Below are positions 17,547 through 62,900 of a DNA stretch of 64,000 bases, piece by piece. Under the pieces are notes generated by a model. The model saw nothing but the letters and a program-made list of their open reading frames with translations, was not told the origin of the DNA and did no database searches. The translations under genes were made by a program, and so were the position numbers. The stretch covers positions 1,550,001-1,614,000 of the forward strand of contig OZ237736.1 in the NCBI GenBank assembly GCA_965178125.1, given 5' to 3'. The first letter of the stretch is position 1, and every line of letters begins with the position of its first letter. This DNA is from Bilabrum cf. latius. Lineage: Eukaryota.

Positions 17547-17796
17547 GATAGACCGTACGAAGCCTCGATTCCATGCAGTCACGATCCAAGACCGAAACGA
17601 AGATGCAGGCTTCATACTATTGGCATCTAGTGCATGGTTGGTGGCGCGATATACTCAACATCGACCAACAGATGCGACCGCTTGGCGCAGCTCCGAATTG
17701 CGTGTGCAACGGACGCAACACTCTGGTGAAACCAGCAGAAAAACAAATAATGACCCACTTTTACTCTGCAATGGACCAACTTAGGTCAATCGAAGG

Positions 17797-37123: not shown

Positions 37124-38074
37124 ATGGCACGTAATGCAGAGCGTTCCAATGAAATGTTAAACAAATGGGTGGCGATGAATGAGGACATGGCGAAGATTGG
37201 ACCGAAGGGGTGAGTAGAGCACGGCTTGCGTTCCGAACCGGGCGAACTTGCGCACGGTCCCGAGCAGTATCATTGTGCCACACATCCGCCTCCTTGACGC
37301 AGAAAGCGCCCGCTTGTCGCTTCTGAATGCCATCGATTAGGGGACGCGGAGCACTGGAGACGAGAAATCATTCGCGATGTCACGCGCAAGGTAGCCCAGA
37401 TTCAGAATGCCGGCCTTGGTGAGCACCGAGCCCGGGATCTGAACGACGAAATAAATCGACTGCTTCGCGAGAAAGTGCACTGGGAGAAGCGTGTGGTGGA
37501 GCTAGGAGGGCCCGACTACGCGAAAGCGTCCGGCGACCTCGCAGCCGCCGAGGGCAAGGAGCTTCCTGGCAGCGGCGGATACATGTATTTCGGCGTCATG
37601 AAGGACCTCCCGGGAATTCGAGAATTGTTTGCAGAGGAAGCGCAGCGCCGAGCCAAGCGAAAACGGGGCGACATCCTGAAGACGATCACACCCGACTACT
37701 ACGGCTGGCGAGACGACGAGGACGAGAGGCTGGCAGCCGACGAGGCCGAGGCAGAGACGGAGGCGCAGCGGAGGGCGGACGAGGAGTGGGCGGCTCTCAG
37801 GAAGTTGCACGGCTTGAGCGCGGCGCCAGGAGGGCCGTCCTCCCAGGCAGCAGCGGGCGGGGCGGGGGCCGGTGCGGGCGCCGGCGCGGGCTCCTTCGAA
37901 GGGGCAGGCATGCGGGCTCTGGCCCCTCTTCCCAGCGAGAAGGAAGTGGAAGATGCCGTGCTTCGTGCCAAGAAGCGAAAACTGCTGGAGGGACTTGGGC
38001 TTGGTGGGGCGGGAGGTGGGGCGGGCACTGCGGGAGGAGCAGGGGCAGGTGCCCAGCCTTCCATGGAATCGTGA
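37124..38074 (+). CDS. ISY1: Pre-mRNA splicing factor ISY1; one intron (~37210-37302)
   Basis: MARNAERS, AEHWRREII, QIQNAGLGEHRARDLNDEINRLLREKVHWE, LGGPDY, YMYFG..KDLPGIRELF and DYYGWRDDED. Confidence 0.95.
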
Positions 38075-38172: not shown

Positions 38173-40707
38173 TCACTCCTGCCCTTCCCCCGACAGGTTC
38201 ATGAGGCCCCTTCTTGACCTCCTCTTCTTCTGCGCCGCAGGCGGGGCCACGCTCTCGCCAGTCAGCAGCTGCACTGCCTCGGCCACGTCAGACACCTCGT
38301 AAACGCTGATGCCACCGGGTCCCAGCCGAGGTGCCCGCGAGCCGGCATGCCCCCACTGCTTGCCTCCCCCCTTGCCCCTGCCACCACCTCGCTGCACCTG
38401 CCCCTGCTCCTCCTCGGGCAGCGCCTCTCGCACCACCGCTAGCTCAGCACCGCTCGCACCCTCACCTACGATCTCCCGTGCGATGTCCTGCTCGATCGTC
38501 ACACCCCCGAACTCGCTCTTTCGGCCCCCGCCTACCCCTGCCCCATCCAGTCGCTGCACCTGCCCCGAGGCTCGGCCCCGGCCAGCCCCTGCCCCTGCCC
38601 CAGTCTCCCCGCCGGCAGACCCGCCGTGGCGAGGAGGTCCAGAGGCGGGCACGAGGGCCCACTGGAACCCGAGGGCAGAGGCGGCCCGCAGTCGCGCGTC
38701 CACAGCAGGCACGCGCCGCACCTCGCCCCCCAGCCCCACCTCACCGATGCACGCCACCCCCCCAGGCAGGGGCACGTCCAGCAGACTTGAGGCCACGGCC
38801 GCAGCAGCCGCCAGGTCCGTCGAGGGGTCTCTCAGCCTGAGTCCGCCCACCACGTTGAACAGCACGTCCCCTCTCCTGGGGAACAGGCCGGCGTGCTTGC
38901 CCAGCACCGCGAGCAGCAGGTGCAGCCGGTCGAGGGCCAGCCCGTGGCTCCGGTGCCGAGGGTACTCCCCCGCGGCCTGCGCCACCAGGGCCTGGACCTC
39001 CACCAGCAGGGGGCGGGTGCCCTCCAGCGGGGCCGCGACCGCCACTCCCGAGTTCCGCATGCGCGGCGCCGAGTGGATGGACCGTAGCCGGGGCTTCTTC
39101 GTGGCCCCGTCCTCGGCCTCGTCGTCCTCCGGGGCCGACAGGGACAGGAACAGCTCCGCGGGGTTGTCCACAGGGACGAGGCCCCCGCCCGTCATGGTGA
39201 GGACACCCACTTCGTCGGTCGAGCCGAAGCGGTTCTTGGTCGCACGTAGAAGCCGTGTGCTGGCCCCGCCGCCACCCTCACCGCCCCCACCCCCCATTCC
39301 CATGCCCCCGCCCCCGCTGCCCATCCACGCCGCCTCCCCCTCGAGCTGGATCACGGTGTCCACCAGGTGCTCCAGCACCTTGGGCCCCGCGACCTCGCCG
39401 CTCTTTGTCACGTGCCCCACGAGCAGAACCGGGATGCCTGTGGCCTTCGCAAGCTGCAGCAGTCGCAAGGAACATTCACGAACCTGCGTTACGGACCCGG
39501 GGGAGCTCTCCAGCTGCCTGGAGAACATGGTCTGGATGCTGTCCACTACCAGCACGCTCACTGATGGCCAGTCATTCGAGCCCTTGCCGCCTGTGCTGGT
39601 GGTGCTGCCAGCACCCCCGCCCCCACGCGCCTGTCCTGCCTCCTCCCCGTCGCTCTCTTCCTCCTCGGACTCGCTGCCGCTCTCCTCGCCCCCCTCGCTC
39701 CTTCCTCCCGCCCGCAGCACGCCGAGCACCGCATCCAGCGCGTCCTCCACGCAGGGTTCGTTCATCGCAGACACGCCCGCCAGTGCTGACCGGCCCACCC
39801 CACCGCGCCGGGGCCGATGAACCTCGTCGAAACTGGCCATTCCCGACCCCGTGCCCCCGTCCGCGCCCTGTTTGTCATGGCCACCCCCAAAGTCGTTGTG
39901 GTCGTCGTCATCCCCCAGCACCGCAGACAGCCTCATTGCCTTGTCCCTCACCTGGCCCACGCTCTCCTCGCCAGAGAGATACACGGCCGTGGCCCCGGGT
40001 CTCTTGGCGGCGCACATGATGGCCAGCTGCAGCGCGAGCGTGCTCTTGCCCACTCCCGGGCTGCCCGCCAGCAGGGTGAGCGAGCCCTTGGTGAGGCCGC
40101 CACCCAGCACGCGGTCTAGCTCCGGCTCGCCCGAGGGAAGCCTGCTTTCCTGTGGCGCGCGAGATGTGCCCCCGGAGCTAACACCGGATGCACTGTTCCC
40201 GGCAATGTGCTACCTATGCTCGTTGGCAAGAAGCAGCGGCTCCAACCGGCCTGCTTCAGTCGTGCCAGCCGCTAAGCCCCCAAGGCCGTCGCCGGAGAAG
40301 TTCCAGGATCCTTGGGGTGCATTTCGCGCCTACCCAGATTTGAATGTAGCGGATCGCTTGCCGATCGGGCTAGCGCCGCCCTGCGACCTGACAGAATCTA
40401 GAAAACCTCCCGCCGTGCCGGCCGCTGGTGCTGCGACCTTGAACTCCTTCAGGCTGCCCCACGTCCCACAGGCGCTACACTTTCCGGACCACTACACATG
40501 ATTGGCTCCGCATTCCTCGCAAACAAACTCAACTCTGTCTTTACCGCGTTTTTTGCTGCAGCTGCGGGTGGTTTGGAAGCCGCGCTGCGGCATCCGGGCG
40601 AGCGCGTGCCGTTTTGTGCGGCTTTGCCGATGCACGATCCCAGCAAGCGGTAAAAAGTGCAGACGAAAGGTCTGCACCACGAGCTATGCATGCCTTGAGA
40701 GCTTCAT
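38173..40707 (-). CDS. radA: DNA repair protein RadA/Sms with probable mitochondrial presequence; four in-frame TAGs
   Basis: Zn finger FVCEECGANHV*WSGKCSACGTW, ELDRVLGGG, Walker A GSPGVGKST, VVDSIQT, GHVTKSG..AGPKVLEHLVD, KNRFG and Lon-like C-terminus (GEVGLGGEVR). ATG 40707; ends at TGA. Confidence 0.93.
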
Positions 40708-40877
40708 TGGGTTTGTGTCATTTTCTGGGAGAATACATTTGATTCCGAATATTTTCACAGATGAACACAAACGAACTTTCGCTACTAGCTCCGACCCGTT
40801 CGCGCCATGTGGCGCGGATCTAGTTATAGTGTTGACTAGAGCTCATGGCAAGCTCTGCAGCGCCTTCTGCTCCTAGT

Positions 40878-43800
40878 ATGGCATCACCACCATTTCCACG
40901 GTCATAGTTTGTTTTATCTGCTGTAGCATAGACTCCGGATGCTAGCGCTGGGTACAAGGAAGACTCGCCGCTGGGCTCCGTGCGAAAGCACACTCGCCAC
41001 TAGAAGAACATGCTCTTGGTTAAGAAGAGCTTGGACTTTTTCGAGTAGCATGTACCTTGTTAGCTGCCGGCGGACATGAAACGAGAGGAATATAAGAGCG
41101 TGATGAGTTCCTTGTCGGATGGCAGGTTCTTGCTGGAAGCCACCGAATACACGGCATCGGTCTGCTACACTAGCTTTCGCCCTGGCGCGAAGAAAATCAT
41201 GGAAGGAGACACATTCAATTGGTAAGCACGACTGCTCTTGAAGCTGATTGGTGTTCCTGTGCTCGTTGTGAAGCAGATTAGACAGATGCCGGGCTCCTCT
41301 ACGGCTGCTTCATAAACCAAAAATCTCCGAACGTCTCCGCAGGATGGACACCGTGGCGTGCGACAAGCTGAAAAGTAACGTCAGAACCGTAACTAGTTCA
41401 GACTTTAGAAGGGCGGGCCACGATGGTCTGCACAAGCTCGCCACCTACCTGGAATTTCTCCACAGGTGCGCCGTGGCTCAGTAGGCACCACCGCCGCCCA
41501 AGCCCGTGACGGGCGTGGGCAGCAGCACCAAGAAACCTCGTGCCTCGCGAATCCCAGGAGAAGAGGACACAGGCAGGGCCTCCGCCGCGTGCACGCCCTC
41601 CCACTCCAACTCCCGGGGACCCCCCCTGACGGGAGATGGGTACATGGGCCCCTTGCAGCACCACGGGGGCCCCGCGAGAGCGCCCCGGTCATTGCGCAAG
41701 GCCGGCCCTCCCTCCGCGGGAGCCAGCACTGTGGCCTCGGAGCGGTCGTGCGCCGGCCATCTGAGCTCACAGCGCCTCGCAGGCCGCATGATCCAGATGC
41801 GTGCCAGGGGCACGCCGGGGAGGATGCGGGCGGGGGCTGCGGCGGCCGAGGCGGCGGCACAGGCGCAGCGAGAGCTCGACAATGCTACTCGTCGCGCTGA
41901 GACGCTCGAGGCTGAGATGCGCTGCCTGAAGGGCGACAACGAGTCCCTCAAGCAGCAGATTCAGCGCCAGGTGGACAGCATGGCAGAGCTGAGGGGGCGG
42001 TACGAGGCGCAGTCAGAGGGGCAGGGAGCGCTGCACCAGGACTTCGCCAAGCAGGTGGAGGAGAAGGAGACGGCCCGTCAGGAGGCGAGGCAGAGGGCCC
42101 TCGAGGCGGAGGAACAGGCGGCCAAGCTGGAGACCGAGCTGGAGGACACGAGGCGCAAGCTGCACCGCAACTCGACGCGCAAGGCCGAGGCCGAGGCCGA
42201 GCTGGAGGAGGCCCAGTCGGAGGCGGAGCGGGCGCGGGCCGAGGCCAAGGACGCGCAGGAGGCCCTGAGGGTGCTGGAGACCACCATGGCGGAGGACGCC
42301 GAGAGGAGGTCCAGGAGGGAGGAGGAGGACGCCAAGCAGCTGGCCAGGCTCAGGGCGGGGGCGCAGGCGCAGTCCAAGGCGGCCCGCAGCACGGTGGAGC
42401 GCTGCCGCTCCGCGCACTCTGCGATCAAAGAGGCCGCCCAGGGCATGAGGGAGCTGGCGCAGGTGGTCAGGGCCGAGACGGCCTCTGCCTCCTCGGAGCT
42501 GGGCCGCCTGGGCCAGGCGCTGGCCGAGGCCGTGGGCCGGGCGCAGGAAGGGGCCAGGGAGGCGGACCGGCGGTTCATGCGCGAGTCCAGGGAGCGGCGA
42601 AGGGCCTTCAACCAGCTGCAGGAGCTGAAGGGGAACATCAGGGTGTTCTGCAGAGTGCGGCCCATGCTGCCGCGCGAGCAGGACAAGGGCGAGAGCGCTG
42701 TGGTGGCGACCCCCTCTGACTTCGAGATGGTCGTGGGGGCGGGGGCGGGAGCGGGGGCCGAGGACGGGGAGGAGGCCAAGGAAGGGGGCGCTGCGTCCTC
42801 TGGATCCGGGTCATCTGACCCTGCGGCAGCCACGCCATCCAAGAAGAGGACTCGCCGTCTGGGCGCGGGGGCAAGCGGGGCCGAGGGGCAGCTGCAGAAG
42901 TACGAGTTCGACCGGGTGTTCGGGCCGCAGTCGACGCAGCAGGAGGTGTACGACGAGATCAGCCCCATGGTCATGTCGGCTCTGGACGGCTTCCACGCGT
43001 GCATCTTCGCGTACGGGCAGACGGGCTCGGGCAAGACGTACACGATGCAAGGGGGCCGCGAGGGCGAGGAGCACGGCGTGTACCTCCGTTCCCTGGAGCA
43101 GCTCTTCGACGAGAGGGCCGCGCGCACGGACTCGCACGACTACGAGCTATCCGTGTCCATGGTGGAGATCTACAACGAGACGGTGAGGGACCTGCTGCAC
43201 GCGGAGTCTGCCAGGGCCGCGGCGGCGGTGGCCTCCAACGGGCCGGGGGCGCCGGGGGCGGGGAGCGCCGGTGTGGTGGACATCAAGCAGGGCCCCCACG
43301 GAGTGTACATGCCCGGGTGCACCTCGGTGCCCGTGGGATCCGCCGCTGACGTGGCGCGGGTCATGGCCCGAGGGGAGGCCTCCCGCTCGGTGGGATCGAC
43401 CGACTCGAACGCGCACTCCAGCCGCTCACACATGCTCCTGCTGGTGGACGTGACCGGCACCAGCCGGGTCAACGGTGCCATGTCCAGGGGGCGCCTCGTG
43501 CTCGTGGATCTGGCCGGCTCGGAGCGGGTGCGGAAGAGCGGGGCAGTGGGGCAGCGCATGCTGGAGGCCTAGAACATCAACCGGAGCCTGAGCGCGCTGG
43601 GAGACGTCATCGCAGCCCTGACGCACAAGCAGAAGCACATCCCGTTCCGCAACAGCAAGCTGACCTACCTGCTGCAGGACTCGCTGGGCAAGGACAACAA
43701 GGCCCTCATGATCGTCCAGGTGTCCCCCATTGCGGGGTCACAGGGGGAGACCACTTGCTCCCTCAAGTTCGCTGCCAGGGTGCGCAAGGTGGAGCAGGGC

Positions 43801-46458
43801 AAGGCCAAGAAGCACGGCGACTCCACGGAGACCATGCAGCTCAAGAGGGCCCTCAGGGAGGCCAAAGAGGCGGCCAGGAACGCGCAGCATGACGCGGATG
43901 GGCTCCGCGTGAAGCTGCAGCAGGCCGAGAAGGCCGCCACGGACGCGCAGGCCAGAGCCAAGGAGCACCAGGCCAAGGCAGCCGAGGCGCAGTCGGGCCA
44001 GCGCAGGCGCGCGGCCAAGGCAGAGGCCTCCGGGGAGAAGGAGCTCGTGCAGGCCAAGGAGGCGGCCCAGGCCGCGGCAAGGGCGCAGGCAGCCGCAGAG
44101 AAACGCGCCGCGGAGTCGGACAAGGCCGCGGCCAAGGCGCAGGGCGAGCTCGCGAAGGCCCTCGAGGCCGCCAAGAAGGCGCGCTCCAAGGCCGCGGAGG
44201 ACGCGCGCAAGGCCAAGGAGGGTGCAGCCGCCAAGGCCACCGAGGCGGGGCGGCTTGCTCGCACTCGCGCCAAGGCCGAGGCGGAGCGGCACACTCAGGA
44301 GGCGGCGGGAAGGGCCGAGGCAAAGGCCAGGGCCGCGGCCGCCGCGGAGATCCGTGAGCTGCGCGCGGCGCTGAAAAAGGCCGAGAACGAGGCCGCTGCA
44401 CTGCGCAAGCGGGTCAAGGCGGGAGGGGGCGAGGGCCAGGGCCAGGGCGTCTCGGGGCTGTCCTCCTCGGGCGGGGGCGTGTCCTCGTCCTCGCTGAATT
44501 CCAGCGCCTCGGGGTCGATCTCGGGCGTTGGCGTGGCGGCACGCACTAGGCGCACGCGGCACGCCGCGGGCCCCCCTTCCTCGTCGTCCTCGGGGGCGGG
44601 GGAGCGCGGGAGGAGTAGGCCCGCCAGGGGCCGCGCCGCTCCGGGCCCGTCCGGCAGCAGAGGTTCCGCAGATGCGCGGCGCCGGGTCCGCGACCGCTCG
44701 AACTCCAACTCCACCCCTGGCAGGCAGGCGGGGGCCTCGCCCGGGTCAGGATCCGGTCGCGGCGGGAGGCAGGCAAGCAGGACGCGCGCAGGACGGGCCG
44801 GCAGTGCGGCGTCCAGGTCCTCTGCAGGGAGCAGGACCAGAGCAAGCGCGAGCCAGAGCCGAGCGAGGGGCGTAGCTCGGACGGGTCGCACGGCAGGTGC
44901 TGCCAGCGGCGGCAAGCCCGGCACTAGGGCCGGTGCGTCTGCCAGCCGCAGCCGGGCCAAGGGGGCAGGCCGGGAGAAACGAGGCAACAGGACCGCGTCA
45001 GTGGAGTCGGAGCAAGAAGCGGAGGAGAAGGAGCAAGAGAAGGAAGCGCAGCAGCTGGAATCCGATGCTGGTACAGTTGCGGAGGTCGAGGAGGAAGATC
45101 CTGTTGATGCGAGCGCGCAAGCTGAGGTGCAACCGTCAGATGCAATCAACGACGGGGAAGAGCGTACCAAAGAGGAAGAGGAAGAGGAAGAGGAGGAGGA
45201 GGAGGAGGAGGAGGAGGATGAAAAAGGGGGAGACGCTGACGAAGCCGTTGTCAATGACGCGATTGATGAAGGTGCGGACGACAGCGACGACCTCGAGGGC
45301 ATGAGCATGGGCGGGGGCGGAGGACTGGCAGCCGCCCTCAACGACACCCTTGACATCGCCCGAGCCAAGCAGAGCAAGAAGCAGGACGAAGCAGACGAAG
45401 GCGAGGAGGAGGAGTAGGGTGAAGGTGCTCCCACTGGTGGCAGCATCTTCGGGGAACTGGAGCCTGACGCGGGCTCCCCAATGAAAGCTCCGGCAGCCGA
45501 GGCCGGCAGCGAGCAGCCTCTGCAAGGCGGGGTCGACGGAACCAAAGAAAAAGAGGGCGACGAAGATGACGACGATGACAGCGAGGACGACGATGAGTTT
45601 CGGTCCGCTGCTGACGTGTTCGGGGCAGATGCCCCCGGCACCCCCCAGGCCCAGGAGTCCGAGACCCCAGGGACCCCCGGGGCTGACTGCATGGCCTCAC
45701 CCCACCCTCGTTGGAAGCCGGGGCTCACGGAGGCGACCCCTCGCGCGCTGGCAAAGGCCCCTCAGTACGCCCAGAGGCACGCGGTAGGAGCTTCGCCTGC
45801 GGTGCGAGGCATCCTGAGGGGGGCGGAGGCGGACCAGGACCATGGCGAGGGCGAGGGCGAGGGCGAGGACGCCGCCATGGGCCTGGGAGCCAGCTCTAGC
45901 TCGTTGGGGAGGTCGCTCCGGAGAGGCGGGCCGGTAGCCGGCGCTAGCACGGGGTGCAAGTCCGCGGGGGCCATGGCAGCTGCCCTCGAGGACGAAGAGG
46001 AGGATGGAGATGAGGAGGGAGGAGAGACAGAGGAGCAGGCGGCCAGGCGCAGGCGATACGCCGCCGTGAAGAGCCCGGGCCTGGTGAAGCGTGGCAGGTC
46101 CAGGAGCGCCGGCCTTCAGCTGGGAGGGCGCGAGACGGAGGCAGCGGGGCACGAGGCGGGGCACCCATCGTCTGCCAGTGGCGCCTCGGGGCCTGGGGGG
46201 CGCAGCTGGAGCAAGCCCAGGGTGGGGGCAGGTGCCGCCGGCGGGTCCTCCTCCTCGTCCTCCTCGTCCACGTCAGCGCTGGTAGGCAGCATCCTCAAGG
46301 CGAGCAGCCGGGCGTCCTTCATGCTGTCCAGGTCCTCGAGCGCGCACCAGGCCAGGCGCGGGGCCAGGCGCAGAGAGGCGGGTGGAGCAGCCCGGGTGTC
46401 TGTGATCCAAGCAGGCGGCAAGGGCAAGGCCGGTGCAGGCCGGTCATGGCGGAAATGA
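40878..46458 (+). CDS. Kinesin-14 family motor with N-terminal coiled coil and long C-terminal tail; intron 41222-41342; eight in-frame TAGs
   Basis: Neck [69 protein letters not shown] and [18 protein letters not shown]. Ends at TGA. The 5' exon is inferred from frame and splice signals. Confidence 0.9.
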
Positions 46459-46720
46459 TTGGCAGGCCGACGAGCGGAACGGGGAAGGGGCCGATGAGCG
46501 TGTGAATGATCATATGTGGTGAGATACGAATCCAAAAAGTACTCGACAGCACCAACAAATACATAAAATTCATCCAACGGAGAGCTGGGAGGGTCACGCG
46601 GCTCGGCAGGGCCATGCACGCAGCAGCGCAATTGGTGGGGCCTCATGCCGGCCGCGTGCCCAGCAATCCAGCAAATACCTCGATCGGACGTTCTGTTCCA
46701 CGGAATGCTAGTTGCCTTCT

Positions 46721-49195: not shown

Positions 49196-49486
49196 CTGCT
49201 GCACCCACTGCTGCACCCACTGCTGCACCCACTGGCAAGAGAACTGCTGCACCCACTGCTGCACCCACTGGCAAGAGAACTGCTGCACCCACTGCTGCAC
49301 CCACTGGCAAGAGAACTGCTGCACCCACTGCTGCACCCACTGGCAAGAGAACTGCTGCACCCACTGCTGCACCCACTGCTGCACCCACTGGCAAGAGAAC
49401 TGCTGCACCCACTGCTGCACCCACTGGCAAGAGAACTGCTGCACCCACTGCTGCACCCACTGGCAAGAGAACTGCTGCACCCACTG
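49196..49486. repeat. Minisatellite of two 12-bp units (A=ctgctgcaccca, B=ctggcaagagaa), mostly in AAB 36-bp order
   Basis: Perfect copies arranged AAAB AAB AAB AAB AAAB AAB AAB A, immediately downstream of the TAA of the GH130-like gene. Confidence 0.95.
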
Positions 49487-49487
49487 A

Positions 49488-50663
49488 TTAGCCTGCAGTC
49501 ACAGCCACCAGTGCAGTCCCCACGACCGCATCACTGCCCCCGAAGAATACCCGGAACACGTCTGCCTCCCCCGTCGCAAGCCTGCCAGTGATGGCCCCGC
49601 TCGAGCCCCCCCGGCCCCGGCCCGACACCCGCCGACCAAGGACCTCTCGAACCGCGGCCGTCTCTTGTGGCGTGGCGGGCGCCGCGGCCTCTAGAAACAC
49701 CACGTCAGGGACGTTACACAGCTGGGGGGCTCGCCCCGATTGCCAGTTCAGGTCAGGCGAGAGCATCGGGGCATCGGGCGCGGCTCGCTCGGCGCACGCA
49801 AAAGGGTCCTTTGTGGCATTCACCACGCACCAGGAGGCGTGATACGCCAGGCTTTTATTAGCAGAGTTGTGAAAGAACATCAGATTTCCGTCGGACAGCC
49901 GAAGGGGCGGAGGGCCGGCCTCCACCAGCCCCGCGTCGAATCCTCCGGGCCTGGGGGCCAAAAGCACGCGGTCCGTCCAGCGCCACCCCGTCAGGCCCTC
50001 CCCTGGGCGAGATACGGCCACGCGCACGATGCCTGCGCCCCAGTACAGCAGGTGCGTCCCGTTGCCGAACGGGTCGACAACGATGGCCCCCGATTTCGAC
50101 CCGGATCGGACAGATTCATTAAAGACCGCTCCGTGCCGTTCCCACACGCCGCTGGAGGGCGCCTCCGATGATGCGAGGCACAAGAAAACCTCTGTACGGT
50201 TCGGTGTTCCGCCAACGCACGTGTACATCATGTAGTATCGCCCAGAGCTGGGGTCCACCGCAACGCGGGGGTCCTCTGTACCCATGCTCTCCTCCGAAAT
50301 CCCCAGCCCTGGCCCAAACACCAGCGAGCCAGTGCTTTGAATGGGCTCCAGTGCGACCTGGCTCTACCCAGTGCGATGTATGGAGCTGAAAGCCAGCTTG
50401 GAAGGGGACTGCCGGAAGTCGCACTTTGCGCAGTAGCCTGCCTCCAGCGCGCAATCCTGCACTCGAACGAGCAGGCCCTCTTTTTGACCATTTGCCTTAT
50501 TTGCGGGAATGTATGAAGGATTGAAGGCTGCCCAGTACGCAGATGTGTTGCCAAAATGTGACAAAAGGGGCCGGTTTGGTAGATCGACAACTTCCACGCG
50601 GTAGCCAGCCGCACGGACGCGTTGAATGATGACTACAAGCAGCACAATGCACGTGATCTACAT
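49488..50663 (-). CDS. Secreted GH130-like (five-bladed beta-propeller) glycosidase/phosphorylase; TAG as codon 2 and at 50364
   Basis: AFNPS, GTEDPRV, YYMMYT, KSGAI, LVEAGPPP, NVPDVVFLEA and FFGGSDAVVGTA. ATG TAG start gives signal peptide M*ITCIVLLVVII. Ends at TAA. Confidence 0.8.
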
Positions 50664-50914: not shown

Positions 50915-53900
50915 TCACTGGCCCTCCTTCGGGGTGGTGCCTTCCTCCCGCACCCGCTGCACGTGGTGCCCAGCTTCCCGCAGGCTGCTCTCGATGTCTT
51001 GGTCCTGAGACCCTCGCCCCGCGACCCCCGGGTCCAGCCGTGGAGAACCGCCCTGCTGCGACTGCGAGTTGGACTGCGAGTAGGTGCCCCGCAGCATCTG
51101 GCCAGCGCTGCCCGCCGTGTCCCCGCGCCCGCGAGCCGACAGCGGCATCGCCCCCGCAGGCAGCCCGGACCCCGACCTGTCCAGCGCGGGCCTGGACCTG
51201 TTCCTGCTCACCGAGGTGAAGGAGGTCATGGCCCCCAACACAGAGTGGCCGCCGTCGGACCGCTAGCCCCTGGAGGAGAGCAACGACCCGCCGCTGGCAC
51301 CCAGTCGACCCAGGGCGCGGCGGGGGTCGCCGTACGGCGATCGAGGACTACCTTCATCTGCCCCTTCACGCCCGATGCCCCCCACTTCCTCCTCTTGCTT
51401 CTGCTTGTGCCTCTGCTGGCTCAGCCGGCCGCTCCTGGACCCTCTCCCAGACCCTGTCCCTGTCCCTGTCCCAGCCGTCAAATTGCCCGCGCTCTGCTCT
51501 CGGGAAGACACCCTGCTGCCACCTGACGCCTCATGCTCGCGCGCCGCCCGGTCCTCGGCATGCGCGCGAGACCCGCTGCGGCCATCCTGGCTGTGGCTGT
51601 GGCTCGCGCTCGAGTCCGCCCCTCGCGTGGTGGGCGGGGCAGCGGAGGGCCGGCGGGTCTTGCCTCGGCCGGAACGGCGGCTACCCCTCCTGTCTCTGCT
51701 TCGGCTGCTGTCGCTCAGAGCAGACGCCCGGCTCTGGCTCCGTCGCTACGAGGCCCTGTCCTCCGTGCTGGACCGACGGGAATCAGCCCCACTGCTAGCC
51801 CTCCCGTCGCCGCCCTCACCCGCAGCCTCCAAGGCCTGCTGAACGTGTGAGGACGCGAACTCGAAGCGTTTCTTGCTCGGGACTGACCTCGCGCCCGCCA
51901 TAGACTTGGGGTGGGCTCGATCCCCCTGATGCCGCGAGCGGGCAGGCAGCCCAGTCTTGGCGTGTACCAGCCGCCGGCTGCTGCCGCCAGACGCACCGGC
52001 TCTGTTCCCCAGCGCCCTCTGGGAGACGGAGGGACCTTGACCCGCGCCAGCACCCGCCGCCAGGTTCAGAGATCGGCTGGACTGCGGCCGGCGCTTCGCA
52101 AAGAGATCTCTCAGCCGCCCCAACTCTACCCGCTCCCCTGCACCACTGCCGCCGGCGTCACCGCGGTCGGTGTCCCGACGGTCCTTCGATGAAGTTGCCC
52201 TCACATGGCGCTGCAGCCGCCCGAGGCTGCGGGCGGATTCACGCTGAGCAGGGGGCTGGGGACCCCGCCTACCGTGGGCCCGGTGTCGCTACTAGGAGGC
52301 AGAGGAGGAGGGCGGCGGCGGGGCAGTCCCAGAGCTGCGGCGGTGCTCAATCACACCTACCCCTCCTCGCCCTCTTCCACATCCGTCCGCTCGCGCGCCC
52401 TAGTCCTCTCGGTCATCGTAGTACGCGTCTCTGTCGTCATAAGCGACTTGCCCGCGCCCGCGCCCGGATCGTCTGCCAGAGTCAGCCCGCCGGCAATCGT
52501 AGCTACCCGCCCCCGAGGTGCCCCCGATCGTCAGCAAGTCATCGTCGTCCTCTTCCTCCTCTTCAAGCTCCCGCTCGAGCTGGTCCTCCTCCTCCTCCCG
52601 CTGCCGCACCGACGCCTCGATCCGCCGGAGGGCCCGCCGGAGGGACCTCATCTCGTCCTGCTGCTGCGCGATCCCGCGAAGCACGGTGGCCAGCGCATCT
52701 GCAGGCACCCCTATGATCGGAGCAGAACCCGCGCTGGATAACCCGAGCTGCCCCACCGAGGCACCGAGTCCCTGCCGTGCCGCCGTCCGTCCGCCGTGCA
52801 TCGCCTACACCTGCGCTGCCATCTCAGCCGCCCCGCTGCTACTGCGGCGGGCCGCTTGCTGCACCGCCTGGTCAGCCTCCGACAAGGAGGTTGCCCGTAC
52901 CTGCCCCTCTGCGCCCCCACTGCTCTTGCGCTGGGAGGAGGCCCCTCCGCTTGAGGCCACCGACCCTGACCCTGCCATCTCCAGGTGCCGTGCCACGCTG
53001 GGCATGAGGTGTTCCCTCGGCGTGGAAGGGGAGGCTCCCATGGGCCGACGCCCGCCACTGCCCACAGATGAAGAGTTGTCTGTGGCCAGCGACCGCAGGC
53101 CCCGACCCTTCTTGTGCCTCTCCCTGGAGCCCGGGCCCGTGTCAGCGTCCTCGTCCTTGTCTCCGAGGTGGTGCTGCGGCGGGGTGCTGGCAGCGCTGGA
53201 AGATTTGGTGGACTTGCGGCCGTCCTGCGCGGCGCTGTGGCGGTCGCTTGTGTCCGCGCCGGCCTGGGATCGAGACCCGGTGGAAGGTCCCCCCACCGAG
53301 GACGATGTCGCGACCGAGTGCGAGTGCGAGTGCGACACCCCGGACTGGGGGCCCACGGAGCGCGGGTGGGAGGCGGCGCGGGACCTGGTGTGCAGCTCCT
53401 TGCCCGGCCTGGACTGCGGGTCCTGCTCTTGTCTTGCCGCTGCGTCCGAGATGCGCACGGACTTGCGCGCCGTGCTGCTACCACTGCGGCTAGTGTGCAT
53501 GGACCCCTCCCCTCCTGTGGCCGAGGACCTGCTCCCATGCTTGCTGAGCCCGCCTGCCGTGTGGCGGTCTCCGTCCTTGTCCTCCTCCTCGTCCTCTTCA
53601 TCCTCCTCCTCCTCTGCATGGGCCTCCTCAGACACGAGCGGCAGCACCTCACCTCCCCGGCCAGACGCCTCCCCTGAGGTTGCTGATCCAACCGAGCTCA
53701 CCCGCCCCAGTCGCGGACTGCTCTGACCCGAGGCACCCACGAGTCCGCCGCCCTGCAGCGACCCGTGTTTCGGCGAGCCCCCATCCTCGCCGGCACCGGC
53801 CCCCAGGTCCCACGGCCGCCCGAGCCCGCCCCCTTCGGTGTTGGACCGACGCAGCACCATCATGCCCCCAGGGCCTGACCCACCCTATTCTGCAGTGGGG

Positions 53901-56900
53901 TGGAACCCCTCGGGACCCCCCTCTTCCATTACCTGCGCCTCGGGGGGCGGCTGCAGCTGCATGCCAGGCACCCGCACCGAGGACCCCTCTGGACTACCTG
54001 GGGGTGCCACCTGCTGCGCAAGCGGGGATCCGATGGGCAGATGACTCATGCTGTGCGCCCGTCGGGGCCGCACCCCCCCTGGTGAGAGACTAAGCGCCTC
54101 CTGCTGCCTGCGGGCCTGGAACCCATAGGCCTGTCTCCGCATCTGCTGCTGCAGCTTCATGCGGGTCAGGTGCGCCATCCCGAACACGCGCGTGGGGGAG
54201 GCCCACCCACCTCCCTTCGAGCCTTCAGTCCCGGTCCCGGTCCCGGTCCCGGTCCTCCCTGAACCGGTGCCAGCAGCCCCATCCCCGGCGGCACCCTCTG
54301 AGGCAGCTCCGGACACGGCGCGCTGCTCCCGGACCTGGATGGACAGACCGCCCGCACCTGCCACACCCACCGCATCCCTGTCTCCGTGGCTCGAGTCGCT
54401 CTCCCCAGACGAACCGCCCATCATCTGCGCCTCATCGCCCGCGCTCCTGGACCGGCGCTGCCCTCGCCGGACGTTCTGCGATCCAGCAAACTTGCTGAGC
54501 ATGGCAGCGGCCCTCGCCTTTGCCTTGGCCTCGGAGCCCGCTTCCGACACGCTCCCCGAGCCCGCCCTATCTCTTGTTCCCTGGGCAACGTCACCGTTAC
54601 TAGTCGAGTCGCTCTGCAGCTGCGCCGTTGCCTTTGCGGCGACCATGGCCTTCTTCACTGCGGGTGCAGGTAGTGCAAAGGAGTGGCTGCGGGACCGCTG
54701 CCTCGTGTCAGCCGGCAGGTCAGGCACCACGTCCCACGGAGAGGGAGAAGGGGAGGGGGAGCTTGCCGCGGGACTGGGGTCCCCAGAGCCCTCCTTCCGC
54801 TTGCCGGGGCTCCCGCCCGCGTCGGACCCCGTGGGGGCCTCGCCGGTTTCTGTCCTGCGGCGGCTGCTGCTGCGATCACCCACAGTTGAAGCCGTGCGGT
54901 CACCGGTGCCCACGCGATCGGTGTAGGACCCCGCTCTGCCTCGACCCCGGCCCGCGCCCCTGACTGCGCTCACGTTGCCCGAGGAGGCACTCAGCGCGCC
55001 AAACACGCTACCAGGGGGCGGCCCCGCCGAGCTGAGCGCCTTGGGCAGGTCTCCGGCGGTGTCTGCGTCATTCTCGCCGGTGCCGCCCGCCCCGCCGCTG
55101 CCGACCGACGTGCGCTCCCTGAGTGAGTTCTGATCCGATTTTTGGCTCGTGTTGGAGCTGCCGCCCGTCCTGCGACTCCTTGACCCACGGCTCCTGGATC
55201 CCCCTCCGCGGCTCGACCTGCGACTACCCCTGACCGACCTGCGCGACTTGGCCTCCTCCTCCACTGCAGCCGCTGCCTCGGCGGCCTGCGCCTCGGCAAG
55301 CAATATGTCGCGCTCCTCGTCCCGCCCCAGCTGGCCCAGCATGATGGCCCGCTGCCGCACGGATGTCTCGTCACTCCCGGCAGACACACCCGAGCGCCGG
55401 GAGTCCGCGGTCGTGAGTCTGCCAGAGTTACCGAGCGCACCGCTGGCCGGGGTACCGTACGGTGAGTTGCCCTCGGTGGGGCTGAGCCGAGGCTTGCCTG
55501 TACTAGCCCCGCCCTTCTTTCGTTCCTTACCTCCCTTAGGATCTCCATGCTTCTCATTGTGCCTGTGCGCGTGCCTGGCCTGGCCCCCTGCTGACTGGCC
55601 CATGCTGCCCGCACCGGTGGGCCCGCTGCCGCTGCGGCCGTCCTCCACAGACACTTCTCCCGCAGAAGAGCGGGTGGGGTGCTTGCCCGCCAGCTCGTCC
55701 AGCGTGTCCGCCAGAGTGGCGAGGGCACCTGCCACGGCACCCTCGCCCTTGTCGTCCCCCTCCCCGGCGCTGCTGTGCGTCGGGGACTGGGCAGTGCGCG
55801 CATGTCCGGCAATTCTCTCTCCGTGAGGCTCGTGAGGCTCGTCTTCGTCACTAAGCCGCAGAGAAGACTAGATCGTGCCCAGGCTGCGCTGGCCCAGGGT
55901 GTCGCGCCGCTGCTTCCCTCCCACTCGCCGCACGCCGCCGCGCCTGCTGCTGCCTCCGCTGTGCCCTCGATTCCTGCCGCGCCGGGATCGGCGACTGCCG
56001 CTGCCCGATGCTGTGGATCCCTCCGCGCGCCTGCGGCGGCTCCTTCCCTCTCCCCCGGTGATGCTGCTCGAGTCATCCGTCTCAGACCCGTGCCCGGGGG
56101 CCTCGGGCACCGCCTGCAGCAGCCGCAAGCCAGATCCAGTCCCCCGGCTCATCTGCATGGAGGGCGGCCGCCTCATGTTGAGCATGCCAGCGGGAGGGTC
56201 CCGGTGCCCCTCTTGCCGCTGTTGTTGGGGCTGCTCACCGTGCCCCCGGTCTCGACTGCGGCCCCCTGCGAAACTGTTGCGTTTCACCCGCAGCATATCC
56301 TGGGTCATCTCGTCCCTGGTGCCTCGATCCGCGCTCAGGCGGGGCCTCCGCTTCCCCACCACGCTGCGAGCCGAGGTGCTCTTGCGCAACATCGCCCGCC
56401 GCGCCCTCCTGCGCCTCTCTGAAAGACCGCCCACCCGATCCCCAGCGCCACTGGATTCCCCGGCGCTGCCGCGTGGCGAGGGGCCCCGCCGCCCGCCAAA
56501 CCCGCGCCGCGACCGAGCCCGTGCGCCCTTACCGATACCCGGTGCCCTCGACACTCCCTCCTCCCCTCGTTTGCCATCGCTGTCCGAGGCGTGGTAGCTG
56601 TACACGCTCTCGTCCCCATGCAGCCCCTCCTCCTCTTCTTCAACTCCCTCGTCCACTTCCATGACGCTAGCCATCGGCCCGGTCCCGCCGTATCCCGCCC
56701 CGACCTCGCCCTCACCATCGTCCTCGTAGTAGTCCTCGCCTTCGCTTCCCATCCCGTCGCCTGGGCCTCTGCTGTGGTACCCATCCCCGCCGTCACCTTC
56801 CCCCTGGCCCTCCGCACCCCCTTGCCCCAGCATCTGGTTCTCGATGGCGGCGGCGTTACGCTCCCACTGCCGCTGCTGCTGCCGCTGGGTGATCTCGTGG

Positions 56901-59900
56901 TATGCCTGGTTGAAGTTTGAACCCAGGATGGAGATGGGCAGTGCCAGCAGCAGCACACCGCCGAGCACGGTCAGCGTGCCCGCCAGCCGGCCCCACGTCG
57001 TCGTTGGGACCACGTCGCCGTACCCAGCAGTGGTGGCGCTGATGACAACGTACCAGAAGCTCTGCGGGATGCTAGTGAAGGGCGTGGGCTCCTCCTCTGT
57101 CCGGAGTCCATTCGGCCTGACGAAGCGCCCCTGCTGCTCGTCCCATGTCCCTTGCTCGGCGAAGAACACGAGAGACCCGAACACCACCACGGCCAGCAGC
57201 ACGAAGAAAAGTGTCAGCAGGAGAGCGTCCACTGAGCGGGACAGCGCGTTCCCGATCATCCGGAGTCCGTTGGAGCGCCTGCCCAGCTTGAAGATCCGGA
57301 GAACCCTGCCGAGGCGCAGCACGCGCAGGATCGCTAGTGAGCTCGCGTTCGCGTTGCCATCCGCACCTGCGCCCAGCGCTGCCAGCGCCAGCTCCACGTA
57401 GAACGGCAGGATGGCCAGCAGGTCCACGACCTCCATCGGGCCGAGGGCGAAGCGCCGCATATCTGCGAGAGCACGGCCCAGGCTGCTGCAGGCCGCGCGC
57501 CGGTGGCAGCAGCAGATGCAGCTGAACCAGGGCGCCCGCTTTGGGTGCTTGGCCGCGGGCCCGTACGGCACCTCCACGCGACGGAGCACCTCCGACTCTG
57601 GACCATCCAGACCGTTAGCGTCCCCGCCAAAAGCACCGTGCTACTGGACTTCTTCTTCGTCTCCTTCGAACGATTCCCATGGTGGGAGGATGCCGCAGGT
57701 CCCGGCACAGCACCAGCATCCGCCTTCCGCTTCGTCGCCCGCTACTGCCACCGACCACAGGCGGTGCACGGCCTCGTCCCGCCGCAGCTCCGCGCGAGCC
57801 AGCCGCCTTGCTGCCGAGTAGGCTCGCTGCAGCAGCGGGTCTGGCTGTGGCGGCAGCGCCACCATCGTCTCCCCCCTGGCGTGGCCCCCCGCCGCCCCTA
57901 GATCGCCCCCGTCCTGGTCCTTGCCCTCGCCCGAGTCGCCTGCGATGTCGATGCGCAGCTGTGACGAGGACTGTGCGATGCGGCCGGAGCCCTGCTGCTT
58001 CCATTGATCGAGAGCGGTACGCCGCTGCTCCCTGCGATCACCCGCGAAGTCCATGGCAGAAATCCTCGCGGCTGGGCCCGCTGCATCCGCGGCGATCTTT
58101 GCACTCTCTGCCGCGAGGAAGAGCGCACCACGGGCCCGCAGCATGTGGTCGGCGGCGCGGCATCGCCGAGTCCACAGTCTCCTAGAACTGATGCACGGCA
58201 CTGCAACCTCTACCACGGCAGCGTCACTGCCCTTGGGCGGTTCCTGTTCCTCTCCAGCTGCGTCCTTTGCGCTGCTTCTGTCGCTGTCAGCATCCGGGGA
58301 CTGCACATCCACGACCGCGATGTCTCCGCCGTGCATGGCCACGGGTGAGCTGGGGATCGACTGCGCAAGCAGAGGGTCCGGCGACGCACCCGAGTCCTCG
58401 TTGGTCTTGGGAGTGCCGCCGCCGGAAGGCTGCAAGCCAGAGGTAGGCGAGATCCTGCTGGCACGCCGCACCCTCACTCCCGTGTTCTTCTTTTCCATGG
58501 CCGTTCGCAGCGCGTCGCTCGTGCTAGTCCTCGTCCTGCGGATGCGGGTCGGGCTCGAGGAGGACAAGGCGTCCCAGCGCATCACCAACCGCCCTAGTCC
58601 GCTGGCGCCTCCCGTGCTGTTGCTCTCGCTATCACCACCGTGCAATACCTCTTGCTCGTCCTGAGGTGAGGTCAGGAACTGCATGAACGCCTCATCGTCG
58701 AGCTCAGAGCTGTCCTCGTCCTCCTCCAGCGCGTCCTCGAGCTCATCCTCCCAGCGAGCCGTCACCTGCTCCTGCCAGGGCTCTGGCCTGGCCCACGTGG
58801 TGACCAACCGCCCCATGTACTCGAACGTAAATAGAACCACACAGACAGCCTCTACCCACGCAAACACATCCACCCCGAGCCGCACTTGCTCCTCTAGCTC
58901 CTCTGCTCGTGCCACGTCCGGAAGGTTACCGATGCCAGCCTCGTTCCGAGCCAGCAGCAGGCCGGCCTCCTGAAACCTGCCCTGCTTGCCGAGTCGATAT
59001 GCAGGCCCACTCTCGATGCAGAAAGACACGACGCTCAATAGGATGGCAAGCATCACGACCATGCCAAAGAACTGACCAGAGGCGCTGTTCGGACTGCCCG
59101 ACAGCACCAGGTGAGCCGCGTAGCATCGACGCACGCACAAAGAGGGGTACGCAAACGGCGGGTACTCGCCGATGGGCTGCCCCGAGCCACCCGGCATTCC
59201 ACTGCCGAAGCTGCCATGCTCTTCGTCTGGTTTCAAGGAACCACCATCCCCGGGCCCGGTGGCAGTGCGATGGGACGACTTCCGTACATCGCTGTCTCCT
59301 CTTCCGCAGCACCCGCTGGCCTCGTCCTCGCCCTCCGTCGGCGGGAGCCAAGCCCTGCCAGCAGCCCGCACCACCGCGGACGGTGCCACGATGCAGCCAT
59401 CGTCCCCGATGGGAGGGGCCTCGTTCTGTGCCTGGTCGAGCCAGTCGGCTGCGCGCCCCACGAGCTCCGGGTCATCGGCCCCCGTGTCGTCGAGCTCGCG
59501 CTCCACTGTCTGCGCGTTGTGAAGGCTGCCTGCTGCCACGCTCATCCTTTGCAGCCATCGGCTCACATCTCCGCGAGCCTCCTGAATTGCATGCGCGGGA
59601 GGGCGAGGCAGCCGCAAGAAACCCACGTCGGGCTCGTCCTCGGGCCCAGGAGAAGGGGCCACTGGCGAAGGCTGCCCATCAGCGGCGGGCCCGACTTTGG
59701 CCGATGAATTCGCATGCGATGCGCCGAGGCCAAGCCGTTCTTGCGTGATGCGCAAAGACTGCTGCGGAGCCAACGAGGCTCGGGGCCTCGGCTTGGCTGG
59801 GAGGACCGGTGCCACGGATGGGGGCCTCAGGCCACCGCTCGTGCCGCGGTCCCCTCCACTGGCGGCCTTGGCGTCCCCGCCGCCCGTAGTGGTCGTGCCC

Positions 59901-62900
59901 TGCAGCGCGGGGTCGCCGATGGGCAGTCTCGTCAGCGACCCACTGCGGCTGAGGGCTCGCACCAGCATACCCTGCACCTCTTTTTGTTCCCCCATATCCG
60001 CCGTGGACGCCCGCAGCGCCTTCCAGGCGAACACAGCGGCGTCCTCCGGCGCACTCCTGGGCCTCTCCCACCCTCCGGCTCCCAGACGCCGCGTGGAGCC
60101 TCCCGCCCCCTGGATGCGCAGCTCCAACCCTGCGTCCCACTGCCAACGCCATTCCTCCTTGTGCTCGTGCGACCACCCCTCGTAGTCTTTCTCGTCGAAC
60201 TCTGCCATGCCCTGGGGCGGGCTCGGCCCCGGCCTGGTCTCATCGTGGTACTCAAACCCATCCCCCAGGCGGCCGATCTCGAAGTTCCACACGCGCCGCC
60301 ACGGCTCTGTTGGGAACACTGGCTATCCGCAGACAACGCCGCCCCACGCGATTCGCAGCCGCCCCAGCCCCGCGCCAACGGAGAACATTGGCTTCACCAG
60401 GCTAGACAGCCTGCAGCAGCACGGCATCAGCGCGTGCCATAGCGCCTTCATACTCACGTAGCGACAGCATCCCGCCGGCTCGTCTGCCAGATTCGCCACG
60501 GTACGGCTGCCCGGCCGACTCGTACTCCCACCGCACGAAATGCAGCAGCAGCAGCATGAGCAGCAGGTAGACAGGCATGAGCTGCACGACTCGCAGCCCT
60601 CGACGTAGCAGAGCGGTAGCCTTGGCCTCCTGCTCATGTGCAGCCCTGCCAGCGCGTGCTTCCGCGCCTCGAGCTGGCTGCGCTTCGACTCGTCGGATCC
60701 GCCGGATGGCCGCAGCGGTCCCTGCCCCCGGCCCCCCGCCCCCCCAGCCCCGGGGATGCCCCCGTCCCGTGGTCCCGGTGCGCCCTCCCTCCCCGACCAG
60801 TACCCCTCCGATCTCTGCCCCGCGCCGACCGCACGGTTGTTGGGCGAACCCCCCGACGACTCCCATCCCTCTGACCCTGCTTCACGCGTGCCTCGCGGCC
60901 GCTGCCGCACCGCGTCCACGTCGATGAGGCCGATGCTACGCTCCGAGACGTGGCTCCGCGGGGCCCTCCGAGAGCGCCGCCGCATGGATTCCTGGAAGAA
61001 ATGGCGGCCACGAGCACCCGCGCTCGCGTCGGAGTCCATCATCGCTGTTGTGGGTCTTGACCCTGACTCCCGATGGCCCATCGTGGCGGAATGAGGATGA
61101 CTCCCGCTGGCCTCGCTGTCAGACTCACCCACTCCGCGCCCGCTGCCAGTCCGCCCGAACCCGCCAGTGCCGCCCCCTCCACCGTGCACGTGCTGCCCCT
61201 GTCCCTGGTCCAGGGAGTGGTGCGCCGTCGCGATGCCCAGCAGTCCACCCATCCCTCCAAACTGAGGGGTCTGCCCCGCGGCGCTCAGACGGTTGGACCC
61301 ACGCCGCGAGAGACCACCTTTGAACTCTGTGTTGCGGCGCTGGTGCCGCCGTCGAGTGGACGGGGGCCGAGGGGCCCCTGCCCCACTCCCTGCAGCCCAG
61401 CGCACCTCCCCAGTCTCATCATCCTCGTGCCCGTGACCGTGACCATGGTCCTGGCCACGGCCGTGCCCATGGTGCTGCTGCTCTACTTGATCCTGATCAT
61501 GTTCGTGCTCTTCGCTCTGTAGCCCAGAGGTCTTCAGCCGGGGCAGGTGCCGCCGCCCCTTCTCAGATTGTTCCCTCTGTTCGAGCCATTGCTGCCGGTG
61601 GCGAGGAGGTGGTGGGGGCGGCTTGGCATTGGCAGCCCCTGACTGCCCGTCTTCGCCCTTCGGCCACTCGTCTTGTCCCCGGGGGTATTCGCGAGCGGCG
61701 GTCTGTCCTTCCTGCCAGTGGTCGGTATCCTCCTGCCCGCCTCCCTGATGGCTGCCCTCGTCCTCGCTGTCGCCATCCTGATCCGCCCTCTCCATTTCCT
61801 CCTTCTCCTCCTTCTCCTCCTTCTCCCGCCTCGCCTTGGCAAGCGCTCGCATCCTCGCGAAGTTAGGGAGCATCCCCTGAAAGGAGCCCGAGGACGGCCT
61901 CCCGCTACCGCCTTCCTGCGCGCCGCCGTCTTGCGCCTCCCCTTTCGAGTCCTTGCTGCCTCCCCCGCCGCCGTCGCCCTTGTTCCTCGAGGTGCCAGCG
62001 CCCCCTGCCTACGCGTCGGCCCCCTCGTCAGGGCCCGTGGCGGCGGACTTGCCCCTGGACGCCCCGCTCTGCGTGTCGCTGGTGCCCTCTGCCTGGCCAG
62101 GCAACCTCGCCCGCATGCCGGCCTCGGCATCAGCCGCGCTGGGCTCCCGCCCGGACCGAGGCACCCGCTCCGGCACGGGCTCGGCGGCCGACCCGGAGTG
62201 AGACCTCTCCGCGTCGCTGATGATCCCGGTCGCAGGCACCACCTCGTCCTGAGACACGTCCTCCTGTCGGGCGGAGGAGCCCCCTGCGCCGTCCTTGGGG
62301 GCACCTGCCCCAGCTCGCCGGGCCCACGAGAGCCGGGACTGCATCTCAGGCCGCCAGCTCTGCCCGTGCTCCATCACTGAGGTCGAACGACGGCGAGACG
62401 AAGAACCGGCTGCGGGACCGCTCGACTCATGCACGGATCCAGACGCCTGCGACACCTGCAACGAACCGCTCCCAAACGCCGAGGACTCTGCCCCGGGCTG
62501 GTCGTGCGCGGAGTGTGCGGACCCATGGGCTGGCACCCCCTGCTGGCTCCTAGAGTGCCCCGGGGTCTCGTCAAGCAGCGACCGCCGCGAGCCCGAGACG
62601 AGTGCTTCCACTTCTCCGCTGGGTCGCCGCTCACGCCTGCTCCTTGGTTTCCCTTGAGTCACCAGAACCGCCAGCCGGGGGGCCCGGGCGGACCCAGATC
62701 TCACGTGCGTTGTCCCTTCATTGCGGCCCTGGGGCTGCTCCACGCGGTCCCCTGGGTCAAGCGGAGGTGTTGGAACGACCCCGATAGGCCCTCTGACGTC
62801 AGTTCCGCTCGAGTCAGAGCTCCCATGTTCCACAGAGGGTGGGGCCGCTCGCAGACCGACGGAGCGCCGTTCCGACACAGGACTTGCAGCCCCAACCGCG

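Follow-up and report, generated by a model that had tools for sequence, protein, structure and literature searches.

A TAG codon at a conserved glutamine of a kinesin-14 motor suggests that a GC-rich microbial eukaryote reads UAG as glutamine

Can a gene that carries a stop codon in the middle of its motor domain nevertheless encode a whole kinesin, and if so, what does this say about the genetic code of the organism? The question is raised by a 64,000-nucleotide stretch of contig OZ237736.1 (assembly GCA_965178125.1, positions 1,550,001 to 1,614,000 of the forward strand; hereafter the window, in whose own coordinates all positions are given), in which a TAG at 43570-43572 (+) stands in frame within the motor domain of a kinesin-14 gene. 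A first-pass annotation of this DNA had singled out the codon as diagnostic, proposing that a stop at this point would delete part of an otherwise whole motor, that no intron could be fitted there, and that kinesin-14 proteins usually have glutamine (Gln) at this position. From the sequence comparisons presented here, we conclude that the gene is very probably intact and that the TAG stands for the conserved Gln preceding the NINRSL helix. More broadly, the window appears to come from a GC-rich, intron-poor microbial eukaryote with a nuclear code in which UAG is read as Gln while UAA and UGA are stops, a reading to which we assign a probability of about 0.88.

The kinesin-14 gene and its in-frame TAG

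The kinesin gene occupies 41199-46458 (+) and contains three in-frame TAGs. It probably starts at the ATG at 41199, which is in frame across the splice joint of an intron at 41222-41342 (GT..AG); the second exon, 41343-46458 (+), closes with a TGA at 46456-46458. With TAG read through, the frame 41272-46458 (+) is open for 1728 codons. The motor domain (42652-43791, +; frame residues 461-840) is complete, with the Pfam kinesin profile PF00225 matched over positions 1-327 of 327 (E 4.8e-101) and the Microtub_bd profile (PF16796) covering the neck-motor junction, and both the P-loop (GQTGSGKT) and switch II (DLAGSE) are seen in alignments with PDB structures. The 16 best PDB matches are to KIFC3, Kar3 (including its Ashbya homologue, 3t0q), KCBP, KIFC1 and Ncd, the best solved relative being human KIFC3 (5wde; phmmer, E 3.6e-82). 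Judged by these nearest relatives and by the position of the neck, the predicted protein is a kinesin-14 of the KIFC3-like class. It shares with the KIFC3, Kar3, KCBP and Ncd motors the full motor profile and the conserved Gln before the NINxSL helix, but differs from them in that the motor is internal to a frame of about 1,700 residues, with a tail of some 900 residues, coiled-coil-like and of low complexity, on its C-terminal side, and in an Ala/Gly-rich insertion in one loop.

The TAG in question is residue 767 of this frame and lies between switch II and the helix that follows. On re-checking, the letters ctg gag gcc tag aac atc aac cgg agc ctg are found at 43561-43590 (+), just as the first-pass annotation had read them, and termination at this codon would indeed cost an otherwise whole motor its final 73 residues. 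The phmmer alignment of KIFC3 with the kinesin frame has no gap across the site, and a contig from another study's sequencing run (X5, described below) is colinear with the window here, so no intron can fit at this TAG, in agreement with the earlier claim. Gln stands opposite the codon in all five PDB alignments listed (KIFC3, Kar3 three times, and KCBP). When the 120 best database homologues were aligned with MAFFT at fast settings, the column held Q in 114, K in 2, L in 2, S in 1 and M in 1. Alignment to KIFC3-type motors had been proposed as the check on the expected residue, and Gln turns out to be anything but rare there. A Gln content of 90% or more is reached in just 4 of the 357 well-occupied columns of this alignment, one of which is the TAG column; a randomly placed codon would fall on such a column with a chance of about 1%. 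These results support a step that the first-pass annotation had left unsaid, that the kinesin site is diagnostic of an altered genetic code.

A lone premature stop is, of course, the usual signature of a pseudogene or of an error in sequencing or assembly, and either could be invoked if the kinesin stood by itself. Whether the codon is TAG or CAG in sequencing data had also been put forward as a check, and contigs from two studies, compared at contig level, carry TAG and not CAG. In run X1, a single contig covers 34000-45163 with 0 differences from the window, kinesin TAG included, though this run may be the window's own source sample and is therefore not independent. In run X5, which belongs to another study and bears another organism label, a single contig covers 42799-45163, again with 0 differences over the kinesin TAG. 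The identical letters in the two studies, the complete motor profile and the lack of any frameshift all speak against a decayed or misread gene, as do the 73 in-frame TAGs distributed over 15 long frames of the window, accompanied by no other type of stop, and the placement of TAGs on Gln columns of three unrelated genes. We consider the probability of a pseudogene or an error to be close to negligible.

TAG in other genes of the window

Two points go beyond the first-pass annotation: that TAG alone, and not TAA, has been reassigned, and that a diverged relative has the same trait. Under the standard code the longest open reading frame in the window, whose GC content is 56-76%, encodes 922 amino acids. 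Treating TAG as sense yields frames of 4361, 2313, 1728, 1601 and 1253 amino acids; treating TAA as sense leaves the maximum unchanged at 922, and treating TGA as sense gives 1186. Stop triplets were counted in 15 long frames totaling 17,877 codons. TAG occurs 73 times in frame, 107 times in frame +1 and 88 times in frame +2; the corresponding counts are 0, 22 and 35 for TAA and 0, 225 and 247 for TGA. TAG makes up about 8% of the Gln-type codons in these frames, with up to 21 in a single frame. The long frames with recognized families include kinesin-14, copine, GH92 and a RadA/Sms-like protein, together with a voltage-gated-type channel, LRR proteins, a trypsin-like protein, eIF5, GMP reductase (with introns), PP2C and a GH130-like enzyme. 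An in-frame TAG is found in otherwise intact conserved genes in four cases (kinesin, copine, eIF5 and the RadA-like gene), while the TAG of the GH130 frame lies outside all alignments.

Which amino acid TAG stands for is best judged at positions where homologues agree. In the copine gene (frame 10711-12720, +), the TAG at 10870-10872 (+) is residue 54, within the C2 domain, and its column is Gln in 114 of 120 homologues, a conservation that is inflated because these homologues are mostly vertebrate copines. In eIF5, the TAG at 3979-3981 (-), in the first coding exon and within the N-terminal domain, falls on a conserved column. Of 150 representatives examined, 142 extend over this site, and 112 of these have Gln, followed by L with 8 and V with 6; mammalian eIF5 has Gln there in all four PDB alignments listed, and so does the closest eIF5 relative, P0242, a fragment that is 89% identical. 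With the kinesin site, these are the only three conserved columns available, and all three are dominated by Gln.

Close relatives allow the comparison to be extended to less conserved sites. Two near-identical database copines, P0123 and P0399, have Gln opposite the TAGs in the copine tail at 12376-12378 (+, residue 556) and 12577-12579 (+, residue 623), and share their C-terminus with the window's copine, whose frame is closed by TGA. With about 20 residue differences and an indel relative to the window copine, they come from another strain or species. The 2313-residue frame belongs to no Pfam family. When this frame was used as a query, with 11 TAGs, a sole homologue was found, P0241, which is 82% identical over 98 residues and has Gln opposite the TAG at 20971-20973 (+) and Pro opposite that at 20995-20997 (+). 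Altogether, close relatives carry Gln at five of six comparable TAG sites of the window (three in copine, one in eIF5 and one in the 2313-residue frame), the sixth being the Pro. Taken together, the conserved columns and close relatives make it very likely that TAG is a sense codon for Gln in the genome from which the window derives. Pyrrolysine and selenocysteine were also considered as readings of TAG and dropped, the sites being Gln columns of ordinary proteins.

The diverged relative is L001, a metagenome DNA contig with a GC content of 53% whose copine is 75% identical to that of the window. At the position of the window's residue 54 TAG, L001 has CAG, between identical flanks (MLS_IMSS). 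Its copine also has an in-frame TAG of its own, past which a Gly/Pro/Tyr-rich tail stays open as far as the contig reaches; P0121, the protein predicted from L001 in the database, ends exactly at this TAG. As the trait is common to the window and L001, the code change is older than their split. The two differ considerably in composition, with a GC content of 53% for L001 (1-5370, matched to the copine frame 10711-12720) compared with 56-76% in the window. Other relatives, about 90-95% identical, are seen in runs X7 and X9.

Gln in relatives at sites where the window has TAG could also arise if U were edited to C in the mRNA, turning TAG into CAG before translation; the related predicted proteins do show Gln at window TAGs, and had they come from RNA of the same organism, this would resemble editing. 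These proteins, however, come from other strains or species, given their many further differences, and L001 has CAG even though it is DNA. The X5 contigs also bear on editing. They skip 41222-41342 and 37210-37302, both of which have GT..AG boundaries and both of which are present in the X1 contig, joining 41220 to 41342 and 37208 to 37302, which suggests that they derive from spliced RNA or cDNA. All eight in-frame TAGs that they cover are unchanged. Three of these are in the kinesin gene: the diagnostic codon; a second TAG at 41482-41484 (+, residue 71), in an N-terminal region that no homologue reaches (contig 41342-42775, 0 differences); and a third at 45415-45417 (+, residue 1382), in the acidic tail (contig 45231-46541, 0 differences). 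Four are in the N-terminal part of the RadA/Sms-like frame 38173-40842 (-), at 40684-40686, 40492-40494, 40330-40332 and 40210-40212 (all within contig 39660-40703, 0 differences), and one is in the GH92 gene. Editing thus appears extremely unlikely.

Stop codons and the decoding of UAG

If UAG is read as Gln, which codons end translation? Among the 14 frame ends that were checked, 11 are TGA and 3 are TAA, and none of the 14 genes needs TAG as its stop. That TGA serves as a terminator is also seen in the X5 contigs, which stop 83-88 nucleotides past this codon in the kinesin and GH92 genes. The conserved copine tail, which extends past two TAGs, is in keeping with this. The best case in the window for TAA as a stop is the codon that ends the GH130-like gene, at 49488-49490 (-). 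This frame closes 5 residues beyond the last stretch aligned to solved GH130 enzymes and 13 residues short of the end of the best chain, and the next TGA is 118 codons further on. Directly downstream of the GH130-like TAA lies a 36-nucleotide tandem repeat (49207-49486; 7.4 copies, also with a 120-nucleotide period), which on the + strand reads as a PT-type repeat.

The status of TAA is what separates the proposed code from the one in which UAG and UAA (UAR) both encode Gln (NCBI table 6). Under that code TGA would be the sole stop and TAA would be rare simply on account of the high GC content. UAR = Gln is described as the most frequent variant nuclear code (PMC11687900), TAA is indeed the rarest stop triplet in the window (125, compared with 336 TAG and 597 TGA), and frames hardly change when TGA is taken as the only stop. 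Yet not one TAA was found in frame, although the ratio of CAA to CAG in the long frames (131:670) would lead one to expect about 14 and although TAA does occur in the other two frames. A less circular test gives the same picture: when real genes are examined in frames running from TGA to TGA, TAA occurs only within the first 41 or last 9 codons. In addition, three frames close at TAA, one of them right after the GH130 homology. We therefore regard a UAR = Gln code as very unlikely, and consider it likely that TAA remains a stop.

Several observations weigh against the proposed code, or limit how far the figures above can be taken. The absence of in-frame TAA and TGA from the 15 frames is partly circular, since the frames are bounded by those codons, and for TAA the sample is small. 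Some of the 73 TAGs are noncoding: the TAG of the GMP-reductase gene is intronic, and the X5 contig that resembles a GH92 transcript begins downstream of two of the three TAGs in that frame. GC content at third codon positions is 65% within 40 codons of TAGs compared with 75% overall, which suggests either that TAGs build up where constraint or codon bias is weak or that a number of them are untranslated or intronic. Run X5 is classed as "probably DNA" and is not recorded as RNA, the read evidence is at contig level only, and the evidence base as a whole is a single 64-kb window plus a few fragments of relatives. At the level of individual residues, a second eIF5 TAG (3730-3732, -) is at a variable site, where the mammalian protein has Ala and the yeast protein Pro, and is uninformative as to the amino acid; the zinc-ribbon TAG of the RadA-like protein faces Lys in Streptococcus RadA, at a site that is likewise variable and uninformative; and there is the Pro opposite the second TAG of the 2313-residue frame. 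Finally, occasional termination at TAG may be compatible with a sample of 14 gene ends.

The last of these points lend themselves to two related alternatives, that TAG encodes some other amino acid, or that it is ambiguous between sense and stop, as in Condylostoma-type codes. Codes with UAG = Leu, Ser and Glu exist (PMC11687900), the Pro in one relative and the Lys at another site depart from Gln, and 14 gene ends are too few to count against occasional TAG termination. The three conserved columns, in contrast, are Gln in 114 of 120, 114 of 120 and 112 of 142 sequences, with the next residue reaching at most 8 of 142, and Pro and Gln codons are one base apart in a region that is fast-evolving. 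An ambiguous code sits poorly with the lack of any frame end requiring TAG as stop, and with a copine tail that, beyond its two TAGs, is conserved to the common TGA end. Another amino acid or an ambiguous codon is, in our judgment, highly improbable.

How would UAG come to be read as Gln and UAA not? In the mechanism we propose, UAG would be an ordinary, minor Gln codon, with UGA (most often) and UAA ending translation. A tRNA-Gln with anticodon CUA, derived from tRNA-Gln(CUG) by one anticodon change, would read UAG but not UAA, and recognition of UAG by eRF1 would be lost or weakened. A tRNA-Gln(CUA) and eRF1 basis is described for other UAG-only codes (PMC5304391; PMC11687900), and by analogy with this literature the mechanism probably applies here as well. 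Against it must be set that ARAGORN finds 0 tRNA genes in the window, in L001 and in a further small locus, L002, that Rfam at the gathering threshold gives 0 matches, and that an eRF1 gene is absent from the 64-kb window. These results would also suit a different mechanism, in which an ordinary or altered tRNA-Gln(CUG) reads UAG near-cognately in the presence of a weakened eRF1, with no CUA tRNA at all, as none is seen in the 64 kb and the two small loci. tRNA-Gln is a known near-cognate reader of UAG (PMC13192750), and an analogue is offered by Blastocrithidia, in which an altered tRNA-Trp with a 4-bp anticodon stem reads UGA (PMC13092985). However, up to 21 TAGs per frame would demand efficient decoding, and those UAG or UAR = Gln organisms for which genomes are available are reported to have tRNA-Gln(CUA) genes (PMC5304391; PMC11687900). 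Near-cognate reading by tRNA-Gln(CUG) is thus unlikely, while decoding by a dedicated tRNA-Gln(CUA) would be the probable basis of the UAG = Gln code.

Several further features of the window are recorded here. The RadA-like (-) and kinesin (+) genes are arranged head to head (40703-41345); an X5 contig runs from 40842 through the first kinesin exon, so that no more than a few hundred bases can separate the 5' ends of the two genes, which may even overlap. The RadA/Sms homologue (38173-40842, -) is of bacterial type, with about 100 residues before the zinc ribbon and large Gly/Glu-rich insertions, and its N-terminal extension may be a putative organelle-targeting sequence. Between the GH92 and RadA-like genes lies a small spliced gene (37187-38074, +), whose intron at 37210-37302 (GT..AG) is the second of the two that are missing from X5 contigs. 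The 1601-residue frame at 12849-17654 belongs to no Pfam family and has 12 in-frame TAGs; inside it, on the - strand, about 11 tandem copies of a 51-nucleotide repeat (14846-15392) code for units of 17 residues, the main variation among which is a single position occupied by Gln or His. The longest frame, 50915-64000 (-), is open at the window end and encodes at least 4361 residues. Pfam recognizes in it only Ion_trans and, overlapping with it, Ion_trans_2, at about residues 2181-2368; the remainder is low-complexity, rich in Ser, Gly, Arg and Ala, and contains 11 in-frame TAGs, including one adjacent pair.

Relation to known codes and what the window adds

Codes in which UAG and UAA differ in meaning are described for Iotanema, one rhizarian, Scotinosphaera and a handful of ciliates (PMC5304391; PMC11687900). 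The closest parallel is the fornicate Iotanema spirale, where, as in the window, UAG alone is reassigned, and to Gln, with UAA and UGA kept as stops (PMC5304391), and where the code was likewise recognized by in-frame UAG at hyperconserved Gln positions (PMC5304391). The use of the two stops differs, however, with UAA ending 104 of 119 Iotanema genes and UGA 15 (PMC5304391), compared with 11 TGA and 3 TAA among the 14 ends in the window. The window is also GC-rich (56-76%). Neither the kinesin tree nor the best named matches lead toward the Iotanema lineage, and membership in it is not supported. A RadA/Sms-like protein with a long N-terminal extension suggests an organelle that has a genome, which would also set the window's organism apart from Iotanema.

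Among ciliates, Hartmannula sinica, Trochilia petrani and Protocruzia tuzeti are reported to read UAG as Gln and to keep UAA (PMC11687900), giving the same codon table as that of the window and likewise using UAG widely as a sense codon. In these species UAA is the stop in 86.9-98.3% of genes and GC content is 27-54% (PMC11687900), whereas the window is dominated by TGA stops and higher in GC; with long genes and introns of 93-121 nucleotides, it is also unlike a ciliate macronuclear genome. The UAR = Gln code, found in many ciliates, hexamitin diplomonads, some ulvophyte green algae, Streblomastix and Amoeboaphelidium (PMC11687900), resembles that of the window in UAG = Gln and in the presumed suppressor tRNA-Gln and altered eRF1, and differs from it in the treatment of TAA, which in the window closes three frames and is never found among the codons within the long ones. 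A formally identical table, code 15 (TAG = Gln), is described in recoded bacteriophages (PMC9523058), but these depend on bacterial translation and phage-borne suppressor tRNAs, while the window carries eukaryotic nuclear genes (kinesin, eIF5 and copine) with spliceosomal introns.

The matches of individual genes give some indication of where the organism may belong. In a FastTree phylogeny of the 120 kinesin matches, 28 of which are labeled by name, the window's kinesin is placed in an 8-member clade (support 0.996) that includes one oomycete sequence and is nested in a 51-sequence group (support 0.495) containing stramenopile-labeled matches. One of the 10 eIF5 matches that were looked up falls in a cluster with a Cafeteria member, and the PP2C is nearest, in the protein Atlas, to clusters whose few labeled members are haptophytes. 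The best named matches, as single-gene leads, thus lean weakly to stramenopiles or haptophytes over fornicates or ciliates. In the full-text literature that was searched, which leaves subscription journals and supplements outside, a nuclear code with UAG = Gln is not reported for any GC-rich non-ciliate, stramenopile or haptophyte; one stramenopile-related match on stop codon reassignment concerned UGA = Trp in the plastid of Phaeocystis (PMC12480563). The type of code is already known, and the window appears to represent a further case of it, possibly with an independent origin in a lineage that has none on record.

In practical terms, annotation under the standard code would truncate or mis-splice most long genes of this genome, and database proteins of its relatives are visibly cut at TAG, P0121 being an example. 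Codes that split UAG from UAA are rare, and they show that the translation machinery can distinguish the two codons; a further case would give an independent view of the ways in which stop codons get captured and of the reasons for it. Here the genome is rich in GC, TGA is the predominant stop, and the trait is also found in a diverged relative. We tentatively raise the possibility, which we hold at somewhat less than even odds, that the UAG-to-Gln-only code arose independently, in a so far unreported event outside ciliates and fornicates. The lineage may be stramenopile- or haptophyte-like, groups for which no nuclear code change turned up in the literature searched. The change would have arisen, or at least have persisted, in a GC-rich genome with UGA as its main stop, and would be carried by at least two lineages more than 10 GC points apart. 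If so, it would be difficult to explain as codon capture driven by AT pressure, and the group would offer a culturable or assembled system in which to find the changes in tRNA and eRF1 that separate UAG from UAA.

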